Assembly: GCA_963666285.1 (NCBI GenBank) | Contig: OY762711.1 | DNA from: Sedimentisphaerales bacterium | GTDB lineage: Bacteria; Planctomycetota; Phycisphaerae; Sedimentisphaerales; SM23-30 | DNA length: 64,000 nt | Strand: one strand, 5' to 3' | Part shown: positions 448 through 14,840 of the stretch, piece by piece | Layout: each line of letters begins with the position of its first letter | Position numbering within the stretch: the first letter of the stretch is position 1 | The notes under the pieces: generated by a model | Databases searched by the model: none | What the model saw: the letters and a program-made list of their open reading frames with translations, nothing else | Told to the model about the DNA's origin: nothing | Translations under genes and position numbers: made by a program

Positions 448-3400
448 CTACTGAACACTTTCTTTTTCCGGAGCATCCTTATTCTTTTCGTATAGCTCCT
501 CTACATATTGACCATCAAATACTTCATCGCCAAACTGAGGTGTTTCGTCAATGAAAAAGACACTTCGTTCATGAAAGTCAAGTTCCTTATCACCGGACAT
601 TTTGCTGCCATGTTTGACTTTTAGCGGATACCATAAGCCATTTACCTGCTGGTATTTTTCTATCTGAGAAACCTGCGTGCTGCCACCACCCCATTCGATA
701 ACCTCTTTGTGACAGAGATAATCTTTTTCTGGATTAAGATAAAACCAGAAGATGTCATCGTTTTCCTGGCCTATAATTTTTTGAGTATACTTAACGCAAA
801 CAAAACCATGCTCTTTTGAATACACATCTTTAACAATCTCTGCTCTATAATCAATATCGGGCCATGAATGGTTTTCCAGAATACCATAGTAAGGGATATC
901 ATAATAAACTTCTGGAACCTTCCAATAGTGATTCTGACCATTATGCCTGGCAAAATACCATTTTGATTTGCCATCGAATATTTCAATACTTTCTAAAGAG
1001 TCAAGCTTTCTTAACATCGAAACATATAAGTTGAAATTATCAATATTATTTGCATTGCGGCTTTTATAATGCTCATGCCGGTATCTTCCACCATCAATAT
1101 AATAAACACTGGAACAACCGGAGAAATTGATTACACAAGCAACCTTAGCTAAACCTTTAGATTTATATTCTTTATATACAGGTAAAAACTCAACAAATTT
1201 CTCATCCAGCCTATCAACTACTTTGGCATCTTTCGGCACACCAACATCATAAATGCTTTCCGGGCCGGGATCAGGATAATCATAAGCTACCTCGACTCTT
1301 TCCACACCGATATATTTTGCTGTTTTTGGGTCTGGACCAGCATAACTATGAGACCAGCATATATAACCGCGAAGCAAATCCTGCTCGGCATCCAGATACA
1401 TTATCTGGCAACATCCGCCATCGCCAATATTAAGTTTTTCATCACTGGAGACATATTTCAATATCCTCACATCCTGACCACGATATGTACCTCTACTAAC
1501 TTCAGGTTTTGTCTTATGATATTCGATCTGGTTGCGAAATTTTTCAAGCTCTTCGTAAGGACGATTGAAAGCCTGGTCCATCTGCTCTTTATCATCAAAA
1601 TCAACGTCAATGCCACTCGGTACCAGCAATGTCTGCTCTATTTCATTGCGTTTTTTATAATACCACAATACTTCTTTTGTCTTATAATCTCGATATGTCA
1701 CATCGCCGTTATAGTCATGAATAGTTACTTTCTCTTCCGGACATATCCACCATTGACTGATATTTGAGCCGTTATCCATATATTGATACAGCCACGGATA
1801 TTGTTTCATCGCTGCTATCATATCATCAAAGATAAATCCAAAAAGCCTGAACTCCTTATCAGCCTGACTAATGACCTCTTCCGCCAGCAGCTCCTTTATC
1901 TTTTTGTAGACATTCTTGCGAGTAGCCGGGCCGCGGTAGTTTCCGCTACGATCAACCAGGTACCAGCAGTTCATATCGCCGCCGCGTTGGTCTAACAGGC
2001 TTTCGTAGCTGTCCTTGCTCTCATATGCTACCGGGAAAGGAATATTTTTATTCTCCAGTATTGATTTCCACTCGGCAGCCTCGGTTTCAGACATACCGTA
2101 TTTCCTACTGTTGCTATGGGTAGCTATTACTTCCAGGCCATCATCATGATATTGATTATACATACTTATAGTCTGCCCCAGCCATTGATTAAAACCTGTG
2201 GTGTTGCCATCTGCATTCATGCCAAGTTCCAGCAGAACAACTTTGCCGCGATAATCTTCCAGCTTAACCGGGCCGTTAATCCACCACTGGCTGAAGTTAA
2301 ACTCCGGCAGCGGTTTGCCGACAAAATTAAATCCCAGCGGCTGAAGCTTTATCATCACTTCATCTTTACCAACGATATCTACATCCAGGCAGCCATGCCC
2401 GCAATATCTGTCAGAAATGTATACTTCAGTATCAAACTCGTCAGACTTTTTACATGGAATATATTGACCCCAGCTGGAATAATACTTTTTACCGATTGAG
2501 CCGACTGTCAGACAGTTCTGCCAGCCATACCCATAAGCATTCAACACTCGCAGCCCAATAGCAAAACCGGTTGGCATTTTTTCAGACTCAAACTTACCTT
2601 TGCTGTTGGTGCTATGAATTCTGCTATAGCCCAAATAACTGACTTCGACATTCACTCCCCATAAAGGATTGCCATTTTCATCAACAACCCTGCCTTTTAT
2701 AGTACGATCAAATTTTGTATCCGGCCCAAACCCTTCCTTGTATTCAACTTTGATAGTACCGGTATCAAAATCACCACCTGAATTGTGACTTTTTATCTTA
2801 ACATGTTTATATTTAACAACAGGGCCACTAACTGATAGACTGAAATTTCGTCCTTGCGGCAAATGCGGAATAATAAAGCTACCATCAGGTTTAACAACCA
2901 GCTCAGTCAATCGCCAATTACTCATAAGACCGTCGGCATCGTCCATGTATGCATATAATGTAATTTCTGCTTTTTCACTAATTGCACCATCAACATAATC
3001 CAGTTTGCCTACAAAATTATAGGTTGGCTTCAAGACTATATCGAAATGCTTGCCGTTATCAGCTTTCCGTAAACTGACATCTGCTCCCATACTATAATCA
3101 TTGTTATAGAGAACAATATGCTTGACTTCATCATCACTAGAAAATGGATTATAAGATACACTATCTGTAAACTCTCCGGCAGCATCTGTCTTATTCGGAG
3201 CAGCCCCTCTTTCTCTTTTTATGCTATAGTACAATCCCTCTACCGGATTGCCGACCTTGTCAATCAATCTGCCCGTTATCTTGAAACCTTTTGCATTGGC
3301 AGTATCAACAGATGGATACTCTTTTGCATGTTTTTCCAACTGCTTGATATCTTTATTAACTTTTGAAAGCTCTATCTCTCTAACTGCTATTTCCGGCATA

Positions 3401-4824
3401 GTGTCAGGATATTCGATCTTAGCTTTCATCGATTGAATACCTTCGGCTCTACCATCAGAGATAGAAAGATCAAGATTGATTAACCTCGCTGAACTCTTAT
3501 CAATCGTAAGCGTTATGCCGCCAGTCAAATTCTGACTTTCTATTGGCGAATGATATGAAGCTATCTTATCATTTTCATCCTTTATATCCCAGCCCCGAAT
3601 ATCAGTTTCAAGTCCTGGAACCATATTACCAAACATCTTCATTATCCAGGCAAGCATATCACCATCACACCGCATTACACTCATTAACTCATCCGGTATA
3701 TTAGTCTCCTGAAATTTAACCCCTGCTCTAAACATTTTTTGCTCTTTTGTAGAAAGATTGAAGAGCATTATTGTTCCGTCAGATGCTTCAACTGTAATTA
3801 TCTGATTATTAACATCCAGCCAGTATTCAACTTGTACATTTTCTAATTCACTACCATAACCACCCTGCATATCAGCAACCATCTTGATAATCTTTGTGCC
3901 GTTAAGCTTGTTTATTACCTCTGCCAGCAGCGTACCGGTTTGGTTCTGGGTTTGCTTATTATCATCCTTCTGACCTTCGCTTTCCTTGTCCAGTTCATTA
4001 AGCTGCTCTTCAACAATTTCCATTTCTGCCTGTTTTTCGCAAAATTCCGGAAATACTGCCGGATATTCAAATTCCATATATATTTTTTGTTCGCTTTTCC
4101 CGGCATATTTCAATACAGCTTCAAACGAATTTAATCTCTCACTTTCTTTATCTGCAAATAATTTTAATTCCCCGTTAATACTTCCGGTATCTAGTTGGTG
4201 AATAAAGATCACTTGTTTGTCATCGTCAGATCTCTTATCCCAGTTTTCTATGCTTACATCAAGATTCGGAATTTCCTTACCCAGTATCCGCAGCATCCAG
4301 CCCAGCATATCACCATCAAATTGATATATCTTCAGATATTCATCTGTCATTGGCAATGACTGAATTTTTTCATTATTTTTATAGAGTGAGACAACCTTAT
4401 TATTAATATCTATCAAAGCCGCGGTATCGTCACTCTGCTGGGCAATGATCACCTGCCTGGACACATCCAGCCAGAATTGGGCATTTATCACTTCGCCGTT
4501 TTCCTTATTCTGACTGGCATTGATCTTGATTATTCTTGCGTTATTGAATTTCTGTAATACATCGGCCAGCACAATACCGCTGTCACTGCTTGGCATTATC
4601 ATCAGCACTATAATCAGAATTGCAGCGGCGGTGGCCGGCGGCAGCCATTTTAGAATTGGTTTATTCATTATCAGTCTCCTGAATCGGTTGGTACCTGCAG
4701 CTTTGGGTTGCGGGCATTGCCGCACTCGTGCCATAACAGAATCTGTAAAGTCATTACGCACATTAACGCCCTTACCGAGAGCTTCAAGTTTTTGTTCCAA
4801 GTTATTATTCTTGTTTTCAGACAT
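448..4824 (-). CDS. Large membrane-anchored anti-sigma-like protein with duplicated periplasmic domains, carboxypeptidase-regulatory-like domains and a TlpA/redoxin-like domain
   Basis: Coupled to the upstream ECF sigma. N-terminal 'FTDSVMARV' followed by a TM helix; internal repeat LADVLQKFNN / LAEVINKLNG; 'ITGRLIDKVGNPV' and 'IKGRVVDENGNPL'; 'VKLEDYRGKVVLL..GLEVIATH..IPFPVA'. Confidence 0.7.
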   Translation of the reverse strand: MSENKNNNLEQKLEALGKGVNVRNDFTDSVMARVRQCPQPKAAGTNRFRRLIMNKPILKWLPPATAAAILIIVLMIMPSSDSGIVLADVLQKFNNARIIKINASQNKENGEVINAQFWLDVSRQVIIAQQSDDTAALIDINNKVVSLYKNNEKIQSLPMTDEYLKIYQFDGDMLGWMLRILGKEIPNLDVSIENWDKRSDDDKQVIFIHQLDTGSINGELKLFADKESERLNSFEAVLKYAGKSEQKIYMEFEYPAVFPEFCEKQAEMEIVEEQLNELDKESEGQKDDNKQTQNQTGTLLAEVINKLNGTKIIKMVADMQGGYGSELENVQVEYWLDVNNQIITVEASDGTIMLFNLSTKEQKMFRAGVKFQETNIPDELMSVMRCDGDMLAWIMKMFGNMVPGLETDIRGWDIKDENDKIASYHSPIESQNLTGGITLTIDKSSARLINLDLSISDGRAEGIQSMKAKIEYPDTMPEIAVREIELSKVNKDIKQLEKHAKEYPSVDTANAKGFKITGRLIDKVGNPVEGLYYSIKRERGAAPNKTDAAGEFTDSVSYNPFSSDDEVKHIVLYNNDYSMGADVSLRKADNGKHFDIVLKPTYNFVGKLDYVDGAISEKAEITLYAYMDDADGLMSNWRLTELVVKPDGSFIIPHLPQGRNFSLSVSGPVVKYKHVKIKSHNSGGDFDTGTIKVEYKEGFGPDTKFDRTIKGRVVDENGNPLWGVNVEVSYLGYSRIHSTNSKGKFESEKMPTGFAIGLRVLNAYGYGWQNCLTVGSIGKKYYSSWGQYIPCKKSDEFDTEVYISDRYCGHGCLDVDIVGKDEVMIKLQPLGFNFVGKPLPEFNFSQWWINGPVKLEDYRGKVVLLELGMNADGNTTGFNQWLGQTISMYNQYHDDGLEVIATHSNSRKYGMSETEAAEWKSILENKNIPFPVAYESKDSYESLLDQRGGDMNCWYLVDRSGNYRGPATRKNVYKKIKELLAEEVISQADKEFRLFGFIFDDMIAAMKQYPWLYQYMDNGSNISQWWICPEEKVTIHDYNGDVTYRDYKTKEVLWYYKKRNEIEQTLLVPSGIDVDFDDKEQMDQAFNRPYEELEKFRNQIEYHKTKPEVSRGTYRGQDVRILKYVSSDEKLNIGDGGCCQIMYLDAEQDLLRGYICWSHSYAGPDPKTAKYIGVERVEVAYDYPDPGPESIYDVGVPKDAKVVDRLDEKFVEFLPVYKEYKSKGLAKVACVINFSGCSSVYYIDGGRYRHEHYKSRNANNIDNFNLYVSMLRKLDSLESIEIFDGKSKWYFARHNGQNHYWKVPEVYYDIPYYGILENHSWPDIDYRAEIVKDVYSKEHGFVCVKYTQKIIGQENDDIFWFYLNPEKDYLCHKEVIEWGGGSTQVSQIEKYQQVNGLWYPLKVKHGSKMSGDKELDFHERSVFFIDETPQFGDEVFDGQYVEELYEKNKDAPEKESVQ

Positions 4825-5348
4825 TACTTTAGCCCCCTTTCCATCTGCTGGCGCAGCCGGGCATGGGCCCGAGAGAGCTGCTTGGTTACTGTTCCGATCG
4901 ATCGACTGGTTATCGCGGCCAGTTCACGTACCGTGTGGCCGCCGAAATATTTCAAAGTTACTACCTGCTTTTCATGGTCAGGCAGTTTAAGTACATTCTC
5001 CAATAGTTCACTGTGGTCTGGTTTTGATTCTACTGATGCTTCAATACCAAAGAAATCATCTACCGATATACTTTCGGCCCGTTTGACATGCCGTCTAAGC
5101 TCGTCAAGTGCACCATTTCGGCATATCTGCATCAGCCAGGAGCCAAACATCTTGCCATTTTTCAAACTGCCCAGTTTCTCATAGGCCTTGACAAAGGCAT
5201 CCTGGGCAATATCCTCTGCCAGATGCTCGTCGCGAAGTATCCGCGCAGCTACCCCTACCGCCGGCTTCTGCCAGCGATCGACCAGTTCCGCATATGATTC
5301 AACCGAACCATTTAGAACTTCAGCTACAATTTCTGCATCTGACCGCAT
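4824..5348 (-). CDS. ECF RNA polymerase sigma-70 factor
   Basis: AEDIAQDAFVKAY..FGSWLMQICRN (region 2); LPDHEKQVVTLKY..SIGTVTKQLSRA (region 4). Confidence 0.93.
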   Translation of the reverse strand: MRSDAEIVAEVLNGSVESYAELVDRWQKPAVGVAARILRDEHLAEDIAQDAFVKAYEKLGSLKNGKMFGSWLMQICRNGALDELRRHVKRAESISVDDFFGIEASVESKPDHSELLENVLKLPDHEKQVVTLKYFGGHTVRELAAITSRSIGTVTKQLSRAHARLRQQMERGLK

Positions 5349-10676: not shown

Positions 10677-10707
10677 AAAAAGCGTCCCACGAGCGAGACA
10701 CTTTTTA
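10675..10707. terminator. Probable bidirectional terminator between convergent genes
   Basis: A-tract, hairpin AGCGTCCCA-CGAG-CGAGACACT (pairs fully on the minus strand with GU), then a T-tract. Confidence 0.65.
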
Positions 10708-10752: not shown

Positions 10753-12078
10753 TCACTTCTGCAAAAACAGCCATATCCATCCATGAGTTTCATATTCTTT
10801 CGGCAGCTTCTCGTTGAGTTCTAGCATCTGTTCGCTTACTTTTGTTAGCTCTTCTTGAATATCTTTAATTTTATCCTGGTCTTTTTCTCTGTTTGGTCCA
10901 TGGATTTTATCGATAAGCTCTCTGTAGGATTCCCGGACCACTTTCAGTTCTGCCCTGACCTTTTCATACTCAGCTTGTTCCTGCTCAGTAGGTTCCGGGA
11001 GATCGGGTTTCAATCTTGAATAGTCACCGGCGAGAATATCAAGCTTGCCGTCACAATTCCAATCTACTGCACACAACTTTGTACGTGTACCGATAGTCGG
11101 TTCTTTCGGGATATCCCTGCCATACTGTGATTTTGACGAAGGTACAACTTCAACAGGAGCTGCCAGTTCATATTCTTGTGCCGTACCCTTATTCTCATAA
11201 AATGATATACTGCCGTCATCGGCACCAACAAGCAAGTCCGGATCGCCATCGCCATCAATATCTGCGGCACATACACCGGCCCGACTCTTTGCACCAAGCA
11301 GTTTACCGCCGGCTGTCAGCTGTACTTCCTTGCCAAAAGCATATTTGTCAGCAGTACCTTCATTGGGAACAAGATAAATGTTTCCGCTTATATTGCCAAC
11401 GATAAGGTCAAAGTCGCCATCAGCATCCCAATCGACAGCGTTTACTGCAGTGGCAGTACCGGAAATTGCTACAGGTTTTTCCGGGGTGCTCTTTATCGTC
11501 TTGCCATGATATTTAACAATAGTACCATCGTCGGTAGTCTCAAAGTCGGCATTTCCTTTTATTAGAATACCTTCATCGCCACGATCTACAATACCTCCAC
11601 CGGGGTTAATAAATTCATCGCTCTTGTTTTTCAGCATGACAGACGGCTTAAAGGATTTATCTTTTGTTCCTTCAAACAGAAATATCTCGCCGGGCCATGA
11701 ACCGGACAAAACATCAGGATTTCCATCGTTATTGAGGTCCACAACATGTGGTCCGAATCCTATGCATCAGCCGTAAGGGACGGTGCCGTCATTGTCGCCT
11801 GCCTTAAATTTGACACCTTCGACAAGTTTCGGCTCTTTATTGCTGCCGGCATTATGATGTACCCAAAGCGTTCCTCCGGAAAACTCCCCAACCAGTAAAT
11901 CGCGAACACCGTCGCCATCAAAATCACACACAAACGGTGCCGCATGACCTATATTGCCGGTATCGACAGGCTTGCCACCCGCTTCAATTTGGACAGGTTC
12001 GGCAAATTCAATCGCATTGCTAATACCTGAAAACACTAACAGACACGATAAACTTAGCGACATTCTTTTTTGTCCCAT
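10753..12078 (-). CDS. Secreted FG-GAP/VCBS-repeat protein with in-frame TGA (candidate selenocysteine at codon 104, G-U-C motif), 441 aa
   Basis: ORFs 11767..12165 and 10753..11742 are in the same frame. Junction reads GTVPYG-TGA-CIGFGPHVVDLNNDGNPD. ATG at 12078 with an AGGAGAG RBS and signal peptide; DxDGDG..DL repeats on both sides of the TGA. Confidence 0.75.
11736..11754 (-). promoter_or_regulatory. Candidate bacterial SECIS hairpin
   Basis: Starts 12 nt after the UGA: GG-A-CCACA-UGU-UGUGG-A-CC. The apical loop with GU lies about 20 nt from the UGA. Confidence 0.6.
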
Positions 12079-12127
12079 AGATACTCTCCTATAATATTCC
12101 AACTCACTCAGAATAGATGATGTCTGA

Positions 12128-12517
12128 CTATTTCGCCACTTCAACGAATGCCATACGCAAGTCATGGAGACTCATAGACAACATCTTATTTTCATCATCA
12201 GTCAGGTTGCCCTTGGTCTTTTCTTCGAGCATGCTTAGTATATCAATATAATGCTTGGCGGTATCAAGGTCCTTATCTGCTTTCCCTGTTTCCGGGTTAG
12301 CAAAAAGCCCCATACACATCATCGCCTGCATGGCATATGAATTCACCAGCAGCCCAAAATCAACCGGCGGTAAAGGCGGCCTACCCTGGCCGGAAGCTGC
12401 ATCTGCCGAACCGGCTGCATCTTTTGACTCTGCATCCTTACCGGCAAGTTTTTCCTTTTCCTTCCTGGCCTGAGCTTTCCAGTCATCATCGACGATTATC
12501 TTTTTTTCTTCTGACAT
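12128..12517 (-). CDS. DUF1844 domain-containing protein
   Basis: KIIVDDDWK..; AKHYIDILSMLEEKTKGNLTDDE..LHDLRMAFV is the DUF1844 pattern. Confidence 0.85.
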   Translation of the reverse strand: MSEEKKIIVDDDWKAQARKEKEKLAGKDAESKDAAGSADAASGQGRPPLPPVDFGLLVNSYAMQAMMCMGLFANPETGKADKDLDTAKHYIDILSMLEEKTKGNLTDDENKMLSMSLHDLRMAFVEVAK

Positions 12518-12847: not shown

Positions 12848-13447
12848 ATGAAGTCATATTTCAATTTATCTATTGTTCCGAATATGATTTTGAGGCTCTG
12901 GCAGTATTATGGTTCGCTTTCTATCTTACAGCAGTGCTCTTTGTTTATCTTTGCAGGCATAGTCATTGGCATGGCACTTTTCATAGCGCGAATTTCAAAT
13001 GCTGCATCATATATATCAGACACACCGGAAACATGTATGAACTGCCATGTTATGACAGATGCATACGCGACCTGGCGACGCAGCAGTCACAGCAGAGTTG
13101 CTGTCTGCAATGACTGCCATGTCCCTCACGATAACACTGCGGCCAAATATGCGTTTAAGGCTATGGACGGAATGAGACATTCATATGTATTTACACTTCG
13201 GAACGAACCTCAGGTTTTAACGCTTTCCGATGGGGCCAAACCGGTAGTCCAGGCAAACTGTATCCGCTGTCACGACCAACAGCTGGAAATGATCAGATTA
13301 GCTGCTGAGTCAGAACGCGCTTGCTGGTTCTGCCATAGCAATATACACAGCTCAGTTCAAAGTTTATCAGCTTCCCCAGAAGTACTTCGGCCCAAGCTGC
13401 CTGATGCCGGGCTGGACTGGATGAAGAAAGGAAAAATAAATGAGTAA
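12848..13447 (+). CDS. nrfH: Cytochrome c nitrite reductase small subunit (tetraheme quinol dehydrogenase)
   Basis: N-terminal TM; CMNCH, CNDCH, CIRCH, CWFCH; overlaps the nrfA start. Confidence 0.95.
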   Translation: MKSYFNLSIVPNMILRLWQYYGSLSILQQCSLFIFAGIVIGMALFIARISNAASYISDTPETCMNCHVMTDAYATWRRSSHSRVAVCNDCHVPHDNTAAKYAFKAMDGMRHSYVFTLRNEPQVLTLSDGAKPVVQANCIRCHDQQLEMIRLAAESERACWFCHSNIHSSVQSLSASPEVLRPKLPDAGLDWMKKGKINE

Positions 13448-14840
13448 AAACAAAAATAATAATATCAACCCGCAAGTTAAACTCCCGATCTGGGCAGGCC
13501 TGCTGATAATGTGCCTTTGCGCCGCAATTGTGTTTCTTATCGCCATCCTGACAATGAGTATCACAGAACGCAGATGGGAAGCTCAAAGACCGGCTATGGT
13601 TCTCAAACCAATTGAAGGCTGGCAGCCGGACAATGCAGTATGGGGCCAGAACTATCCACGTGAATACGAATCCTACCTGAAAATGAAAGATGATACAACC
13701 CAAACCAAATATGGCGGAGCGTTCCCGCGTGACTACCTGGAAGACGATCCGAGACAGGTATTGCTCTTTGCCGGTTACGGTTTCAGTAAAGATTACCTGC
13801 AGGCCCGTGGCCATATTTATGCTGTTGATGACGTCAAAAAGACCAAACGTATTACAAAACCTTTCAATGCCGGAACATGCTTTACCTGTAAGAGCCCGGA
13901 CGTACCAAGATTAATGGACAAAATGGGAGTTGCGGAATTTTATGCGGCCAATTTCCACGACCTGTCAGACGAAATTAAACACCCGATCGGATGCCAGGAT
14001 TGCCATGACCCAGAAACAATGAACCTTGCTATATCTCGTCCGGCATTAAAAGAAGCTTTTGCCAATATGGGCCGGGATATAAACGAGGCAACACACCAGG
14101 AAATGCGGTCACTGGTATGCGCCCAATGCCATGTCGAATATTATTTCAAAAAAGATCCCAAAAATTACCTTACCTTCCCTTGGCACAAAGGTACAACTGT
14201 TGAAGATATGATCAAGTATTATGATGAGGTTGGCCATATAGATTACGTAAATGCAATTTCAAAAACACCGATAGTTAAAGCCCAGCATCCAGACTATGAA
14301 ATATATCTCACAGGGGTACATGCCTATAATAACGTTGCCTGCGCAGACTGCCATATGCCGTATCGAACTGAAGGCGGAATGAAGTTCACTGACCATCATG
14401 TACAAAGCCCTCTGTTAAACATATCTAACAGCTGTGCGGTATGCCATCGCTGGAGCGAAGAAGAAATTCTTAAACGGGTTGAAAGTATCCAGGACAAAGT
14501 TCAAAATGCAATGATCATGGCAGAAGAAGCAATAGTAAAAGCTCACTTTGAAATTGCCGTCGGCATAAAAGCCGGTGCCGATGATGAAGAACTGGCCGAG
14601 GCCCGCAAACTGGTACGACATGCCCAATTCCGCTGGGATTATGTTTCAGCAAATAATGGCATGGGATTTCATGCTCCACAGGAATGTACCCGAATACTGG
14701 GCGAAGCTGCCAATGAAGCCCAGGAAGCCAGACTGATTATTACCAGACTGCTGGCAACCAAAGGAATAACCGAAAAGCAGACTTACCCAGATTATAATTC
14801 CAAGGCAAAAGCAACAGCAATTATCAAACAATACCAATAA
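13440..14840 (+). CDS. nrfA: Ammonia-forming cytochrome c nitrite reductase catalytic subunit
   Basis: CFTCK (CxxCK) plus four CxxCH motifs; KAQHPDYE diagnostic motif. Confidence 0.97.
   Translation: MSKNKNNNINPQVKLPIWAGLLIMCLCAAIVFLIAILTMSITERRWEAQRPAMVLKPIEGWQPDNAVWGQNYPREYESYLKMKDDTTQTKYGGAFPRDYLEDDPRQVLLFAGYGFSKDYLQARGHIYAVDDVKKTKRITKPFNAGTCFTCKSPDVPRLMDKMGVAEFYAANFHDLSDEIKHPIGCQDCHDPETMNLAISRPALKEAFANMGRDINEATHQEMRSLVCAQCHVEYYFKKDPKNYLTFPWHKGTTVEDMIKYYDEVGHIDYVNAISKTPIVKAQHPDYEIYLTGVHAYNNVACADCHMPYRTEGGMKFTDHHVQSPLLNISNSCAVCHRWSEEEILKRVESIQDKVQNAMIMAEEAIVKAHFEIAVGIKAGADDEELAEARKLVRHAQFRWDYVSANNGMGFHAPQECTRILGEAANEAQEARLIITRLLATKGITEKQTYPDYNSKAKATAIIKQYQ

Follow-up and report, generated by a model that had tools for sequence, protein, structure and literature searches.

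A gene divided by an in-frame UGA codon

A single gene at this locus is called in two pieces. Within the 64,000-nt stretch of DNA that we analysed (the window), Table-11 ORF calling places one frame at 11767..12165 and another at 10753..11742, the second starting with GTG at 11742. Read with TGA as selenocysteine (Sec, U), the minus strand holds one frame of 441 residues (12078..10753) that starts with ATG at 12078 and ends at a TGA at 10755-10753. Its sole internal stop is a TGA at codon 104 (window 11769-11767), where the sequence reads GTVPYG-U-CIGFGPHVVDLNNDG. The initial annotation had proposed that the two called ORFs are one frame broken only by this TGA, which we confirm, adding the minus strand that it did not give. 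The open frame, a match to FG-GAP_3 and full-length homologues all support the 441-residue reading, with UGA104 as selenocysteine, as the complete gene (10753..12078).

Signals for translation and export precede the propeller-coding region. A ribosome-binding site, AGGAG (12086..12090, minus), stands 7 nt ahead of the ATG, and residues 1-21 (12016..12078, minus) form a probable cleavable signal peptide, judged by eye from its basic start, hydrophobic core and S-N-A end and from similar leaders in homologues. The downstream piece had been described as having neither a ribosome-binding site nor a signal peptide; it indeed has no export signal, but weak AGGA and GGA stretches lie 15 and 9 nt before its GTG. 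Beyond the 3' end, a terminator-like hairpin with a 13-pair stem and T runs (10677..10706, minus), recognised by consensus match only, precedes a convergent histidine kinase gene. Contigs from two sequencing runs (X1 and X2) match the stretch without differences; they may be the source of the same DNA and are not independent support. The match from a third run (X3) stops two bases beyond codon 104 and does not bridge the UGA.

Other genes lie on both sides. A DUF1844 gene (12128-12517, minus), also on the minus strand, stops 50 nt short of the selenoprotein start, and the two may be co-transcribed; no such pairing was seen again in the neighbour scan of homologues. Two multiheme cytochrome c genes (12848-14840, plus) resemble what we take, from their motifs, to be an NrfH/NrfA nitrite reductase pair. 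At 448-5348 (minus), an ECF sigma-like gene is followed by a gene for a 1458-residue protein with carboxypeptidase-regulatory-like and AhpC/TSA domains.

A SECIS hairpin maintained as RNA

A hairpin with the properties of a bacterial SECIS element (bSECIS) follows the UGA. The initial annotation had pointed to a SECIS-like structure 12 nt after the codon, and the hairpin GG-A-CCACA-UGU-UGUGG-A-CC (11736..11754, minus) starts at exactly that spacing, with a fold of -7.7 kcal/mol. It fits the published bSECIS consensus model (PMC13188914, section 5), with a 3-nt loop, a 5-bp upper stem, G at loop position 2 followed by U, and 20 nt between UGA and loop. The conserved core, CCACA-UGU-UGUGG, occupies 11751..11739 (minus), with the loop G at 11745 (+22). 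Taken alone, the hairpin is no more stable than shuffles (z from -0.42 to +0.84 in four folding windows and -1.71 for the 23-nt piece), and the bSECIS pattern is unspecific across the genome, matching 1729 TGA sites in loose form and 60 in tight form. Because single-sequence stability and pattern matches are uninformative, the hairpin counts only through its conservation. A lower stem, AGGAUU/AAUCCU, had also been suggested; it forms in minimum-energy folds, but in a set of 30 homologues the right arm is variable, and the stem therefore lacks comparative support.

Conservation, by contrast with stability, singles out the upper helix. Codon 113 has G as its third base in 28/28 codon-aligned genes; none of the other columns among 88 four-fold ones is as constant, the runner-up standing at 0.89. 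This base pairs with the C of the hairpin's Pro codon at 83/83 UGA sites and at 0/5 Cys sites, all five of which have C there. All four core pairs are preserved at 76 of 83 distinct UGA sites versus none of five Cys sites, and a G falls within the first two loop positions at 82/83 UGA sites. At 15/83 UGA sites the inner A-U pair becomes G-C by compensatory change. The GTG called as the start of the downstream piece (11740..11742, minus) is part of the 3' arm of this stem, and the swap makes it GCG, turning Val into Ala, so GTG is not kept as a start codon. Over 30 sequences, pairing in the named helix stands at 90%, with three compensated pairs, and in slid controls at 25-48%. Its covariation score is attained by 9/500 shuffles, which take no account of kinship. 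Folds, pair counts and synonymous-site constraint thus point the same way: as judged from comparison of sequences, the hairpin is under selection as RNA. Two loci with no pattern match were left out of the 83/5 count; by eye, one (L081) has Cys and the other (L188) Gly at the site.

Homologues mostly keep UGA or cysteine at codon 104

UGA prevails at this column in every DNA sample. The initial annotation had predicted TGA or Cys in homologues, and the distinct DNA sites at column 104 (11767..11769, minus) comprise 83 TGA and five Cys codons, the TGA column being shared by proteins as little as about 30% identical. A search of the class found matches at E 1e-20 in 8 of 300 other genomes, whose nine genes all carry TGA. 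The named genome collection yielded 41 loci, including 21 strong ones that span the column, with TGA in 21/21; the remaining 20 were dropped for failing to span it (L039-L041) or as weak generic repeat matches (L042-L058). Among metagenomes, the best-scoring 24 segments of 79 loci include 19 that show the motif, 17 with TGA and two with TGC; two of the 24 come from loci of the named collection.

A profile search extended the census to the phylum. The profile covers the first two blades and was built from 29 UGA and two Cys rows, so that its counts may under-find Cys forms. It matched 14/300 class genomes, 13 with TGA and one with Cys, and 89/400 phylum genomes with 114 matches, 111 containing one TGA and three none; the position of TGA at the column is confirmed for the fetched loci. 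TAA or TAG in relatives had been named as evidence against recoding, and neither occurs inside the 114 phylum matches. One genome of this sample (G404; L175, L189) has eleven family matches, all with TGA and at least two in tandem. In another homologue (L040) the first blade is seemingly joined straight to the last, as if by repeat deletion or misassembly.

Intact proteins mostly replace selenocysteine with cysteine. The best 150 hits in a protein library include 21 intact homologues whose alignment covers the column: 10 have Cys-Cys, six Cys followed by another residue, and five have Trp, Gly, Gly, Ala or Pro, these five all on long branches of the tree. The concern that homologues might have Trp, Arg or Gly at the site applies, then, to part of this minority, while 16/21 have Cys. 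The second position of the pair, Cys105 (11764..11766, minus), is Cys in 81/83 UGA forms and Ala in two, and 6/16 Cys forms have lost it. To judge from these alignments, the protein can do without the second residue of the pair but hardly without the first. Sec and Cys labels on a 105-row tree require 10 changes by parsimony and at least three by well-supported branches, repeated exchange of the kind expected of a selenoprotein family.

UGA forms occur with selenocysteine machinery

The genome encodes the means to decode UGA as selenocysteine. The assembly (6.35 Mb, 97% complete), which its nearest named relatives place in Planctomycetota and probably in Phycisphaerae, contains SelA (E 3.9e-141) and a tRNA-Sec that scores 76 bits against a cut-off of 47 and is its only tRNA with a TCA anticodon. 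These lie in one 10-kb cluster with two ORFs that we identify as selB and selD by motifs in their translations. The machinery that the initial annotation had proposed looking for is therefore present, as SelA, tRNA-Sec and selB- and selD-like ORFs. Elsewhere TGA serves as a normal stop and terminates 449 of the 2572 genome frames of at least 300 codons. The selD-like ORF (L004:11147-12778) follows an ABC transporter. Its product has Cys where Sec is usual, begins with an additional Cys-rich segment and ends in a CxxC extension that is CMD/AhpD-like by eye.

SelA accompanies the TGA form across both samples, whose genomes are kin, so that any co-occurrence test across them is inflated. SelA is present in 109/300 class genomes and in 13/13 of those with the TGA form, some of which belong to families otherwise poor in SelA (3/43, 1/10 and 1/12). 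The phylum sample shows SelA in 296/400 genomes and in 85/86 with the TGA form. The lone TGA-form genome in which SelA was not found (G359) is 90% complete, lies in 410 contigs and has borderline tRNA-Sec scores. Three of four non-TGA genomes show no SelA, and the fourth (G596, Cys-Cys) has it. The four sampled genomes of the window's own family show neither the gene nor SelA. On this comparative evidence, selenocysteine is almost certainly inserted at codon 104.

A predicted five-bladed propeller

The read-through protein is predicted to fold as an exported FG-GAP propeller, as the initial annotation had claimed, the leader being judged by eye. FG-GAP_3 matches it with 85.9 bits against a cut-off of 26.9 (E 2.8e-24) in five stretches, and an AlphaFold2 model from 28 rows is confident (pLDDT 92.7, pTM 0.88). 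Five DxDxDG loops lie near residues 52, 114, 216, 273 and 339. The model, invariant Asp/Gly columns and matches to five-bladed folds place five FG-GAP blades at 11023..12015 (minus), so that we predict a five-bladed propeller, not an integrin-like seven-bladed one. A strand insert at about residues 160-205 is specific to the subfamily. A two-helix hairpin (residues 365-423; 10810..10986, minus), absent from some homologues, is inserted in the last blade. The C-terminal HGWIWLF strand (10756..10791, minus), kept in short and long homologues and modelled as strands, probably closes the propeller.

Structural searches return propellers of other families. The best fold matches are five-bladed GH43/GH62 propellers, led by 7zei (Z 18.6, rmsd 4.0, 250 aligned, 8% identity) and 3k1u (Z 18.5, rmsd 3.6, 249 aligned). 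The Foldseek matches, to larger propellers, are only partial, and TM-scores to FG-GAP/VCBS propellers such as integrin alpha and CRTAC1 are about 0.3-0.36. A sequence search of solved structures ranks CRTAC1 (E 3.5e-8) and integrin alpha chains highest.

The Sec-Cys pair may face a pocket. U104 and C105 sit on a blade-linking loop ahead of the first strand of blade 2. In propellers generally, such a loop belongs to the side away from the calcium loops, which is also where the pockets of propeller enzymes are found. By this topology the pair would sit across from the DxDxDG loops, close to the conserved His45, Gln/Glu65-Phe66 and Ser127. Conserved residues outside the repeat pattern concentrate in blades 1 and 2 in 44 non-redundant UGA forms, which have His45 in 32 and Tyr there in 11, Gln65 in 37 (Glu in the window's protein), Phe66 in 39 and Cys105 in 42. 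Pro101, Gly103, Gly107 and Ser127 are also kept, and Cys-x-Gly-x-x-Pro is conserved after the UGA.

A possible redox role in the envelope

Fused domains point to thiol-redox chemistry. DsbD_N is fused to the propeller in eight homologues, 4/6 proteins and 4/5 family members scanned, all picked for their long tails. The fusions fall in three separate parts of the 105-row tree and keep a Cys pair wherever the sequence was inspected. They are a minority, found at 2/88 sites (with short flanks) and in 3/21 library proteins, and the protein encoded in the window is not itself fused to a redox domain; a stand-alone DsbD is encoded elsewhere in its genome. One fusion (L194:2181-4049, minus, in genome G665) joins DsbD_N and AhpC/TSA to the propeller and has a second in-frame UGA in a T-P-G-U motif, making its product, to judge by these codons, a probable double selenoprotein. 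Another locus (L199) gave no motif hit in the fusion check and was left out. Among 71 scanned of 98 extracted neighbours, no family recurred beyond close-relative pairs and no redox cluster appeared. A complex prediction for the propeller and DsbD_N parts of a Cys-form protein (P0123) scored 0.01, which speaks neither for nor against binding.

We propose that the protein is an envelope redox enzyme. SelB with Sec-tRNA would bind the hairpin, whose loop begins 21 nt past the UGA, and insert selenocysteine at codon 104. The exported chain would then fold as a five-bladed FG-GAP propeller, probably stabilised by calcium. Sec104 would be the nucleophile attacking an oxidised substrate in the envelope, whether disulfide, peroxide or oxidised sulfur. 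Cys105 would resolve the intermediate as a selenenylsulfide, and a DsbD-type relay would re-reduce the pair. The stricter conservation of the first pair position than of the second is as expected for attacking and resolving residues. An envelope redox role is our best guess because eight homologues are fused to DsbD_N, one of them also to a peroxiredoxin-type domain, and we put the probability of the whole explanation, this role of the Sec-Cys propeller included, at roughly 55%.

Alternative explanations

Two alternatives accept the selenoprotein and assign it another function. The pair might bind a soft metal or metalloid (Cu, Hg, As or Zn) for envelope uptake, buffering or detoxification. 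Such chemistry has parallels in the vicinal C-U pairs of the metal-related SaoL, HgcA, MbdU and SaoC (PMC13188914 Table 1), and His45 offers a possible third ligand in 32/44 UGA forms. We consider this reading unlikely, though it stands best among the alternatives: the second Cys is missing from both UGA and Cys forms in the numbers given above, Tyr replaces the histidine in 11/44, the fused domains are of thiol-redox type, and the scanned neighbours include no metal-resistance neighbourhood.

Less likely again is a hydrolase or transferase acting on a pocket-bound sugar or small molecule, with Sec104 as nucleophile and His45 as base. The closest folds are the five-bladed GH43/GH62 enzymes (Z about 18, rmsd 3.1-4.0, about 250 aligned), and the gathering of conserved non-repeat residues in blades 1-2 would suit an active site of this kind; a common fold shows no function, however, and identity to these enzymes is 6-14%. 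A weak likeness to an esterase FusH model (E 3e-5, far under the cut-off) spans generic repeats only. The redox-domain fusions, which the envelope redox reading takes as its main lead, would be left unexplained.

Readings without recoding have, together, a very small share of the probability. The UGA could be a true stop, with the second piece re-initiating at the GTG 27 nt downstream and the fixed G reflecting start-codon constraint. Ten of the best 150 library proteins do begin just behind the UGA, which we read as a mark of split annotation, and the weak AGGA/GGA stretches precede the GTG. Re-initiation is nevertheless highly improbable. The GTG is GCG in 15/83 UGA forms, where the partner base has changed to hold the pair; the codons that would be skipped encode the conserved Cys-x-Gly-x-x-Pro as well as the strand that opens blade 2; the second piece lacks an export signal; and UGA forms track SelA, while intact Cys forms exist. 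Least credible of all is a pseudogene, a sequencing error or a variant code reading UGA as Trp or Gly: Trp in one intact homologue and Gly in two do occur at this column, but 83 distinct sites share TGA there, in proteins down to about 30% identity, TGA ends 449/2572 long frames, and the only TCA-anticodon tRNA is tRNA-Sec.

Relation to known selenoproteins and propellers

The decoding is standard and the host protein is not. Like bacterial selenoproteins that use SelB and bSECIS elements, this one combines an in-frame UGA and a hairpin with selABCD in the genome and with Cys homologues in genomes without SelA. It matches none of the 119 catalogued selenoprotein families by name or domain (PMC13188914 Table 1), a table with no FG-GAP, VCBS or propeller entry, and this bears out the earlier claim that the fold is not among the classic families. 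Whereas Cys homologues nearly always outnumber Sec forms in general (PMC13188914), UGA forms far outnumber Cys forms of the propeller family in the phylum sample.

Databases and literature yielded no earlier description. NCBIfam (June 2026) has no model reaching cut-off for the window's protein or for five homologues. FG-GAP, VCBS or propeller selenoprotein terms do not occur in the main text and four supplements of PMC12013277, nor in the main text and the one supplement consulted of PMC13326102. The sections consulted of PMC4807772 discuss planctomycete selenoproteins without FG-GAP. A full-text search for selenoprotein with FG-GAP or VCBS, covering literature other than subscription papers and bioRxiv supplements, found no description. 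As far as these searches reach, and as judged from sequence, the selenoprotein family appears uncatalogued, with standard decoding, a new scaffold and a function that we infer.

The scaffold resembles two groups of propellers. It shares DxDxDG repeats with FG-GAP/VCBS proteins (PF13517, PF01839; integrin alpha, CRTAC1, ITFG2, PVL), none of which, to our knowledge, carries Sec. Integrin alpha and CRTAC1-type propellers have seven repeats, unlike the window's protein with its five repeats, helical hairpin and C-terminal closing strand. The five-bladed fold is that of GH43, GH62 and GH32 glycoside hydrolases; at 6-14% identity to GH43/GH62, the window's protein has no glycoside hydrolase Pfam match.

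The Sec-Cys pair likewise has parallels. Vicinal Sec/Cys pairs can close into a selenenylsulfide or serve as ligands for a soft metal, and mammalian thioredoxin reductase has a C-terminal Cys-Sec pair. Catalogued bacterial selenoproteins are mostly thioredoxin-fold proteins or metalloenzyme subunits. Adjacent Sec and Cys also occur in SaoL, SaoC, HgcA, MbdU, KCU-star and CopZ-family GxUC proteins (PMC13188914 Table 1). Most of these listed pairs are C-U, unlike the window's, which is U-C, internal on a propeller loop and in an exported protein.

Distribution and significance

The family is common in its phylum. At least a fifth of the sampled genomes (89/400) contain it, mostly in the Sec form, and it has stayed hidden because gene callers cut it at UGA. 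The odds seem to us evenly balanced that it represents an uncatalogued selenoenzyme scaffold in the full sense, an exported five-bladed FG-GAP propeller with a Sec-Cys active site that draws electrons from a DsbD-type relay. If so, it would rank with the most common selenoproteins in Planctomycetota and would belong to an exported selenoproteome that has gone unrecognised in the phylum. The novelty would lie in the protein family and its envelope reaction, and so widespread an exported family would extend selenium chemistry to a new fold. Its presence may be part of the reason that 296/400 sampled phylum genomes retain SelA. The 83 UGA and five Cys sites also offer a compact, naturally varied set of SECIS elements for the study of SelB recognition.

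Further candidate selenoproteins

The same genome contains a second candidate selenoprotein family. Seven genes have an in-frame TGA in the motif [FY]-G-U-[GS]-[GD]-x-[CS]-x-x-[SA]-W-R, at G000:C1 +1429006, +5361320, -4460979, -4441377, -4259769, -498566 and -4457575 (loci L004:7253-7828 minus, L184, L185 and L186). None of three tested matched NCBIfam and neither of two tested matched Pfam. Each gene has a 7-8 bp hairpin with a 3-nt loop starting 21 nt past the UGA. Most encode signal or lipoprotein leaders, and one lies directly upstream of selA.

A third candidate lies at G000:C1:4495735-4497018, plus strand (L183:236-1519). It encodes a signal-peptide protein with the motif Y-M-U-N-C and no Pfam or NCBIfam match. 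Its 8-bp hairpin has a CA-UGU-UG loop identical to the SECIS loop of the propeller gene.
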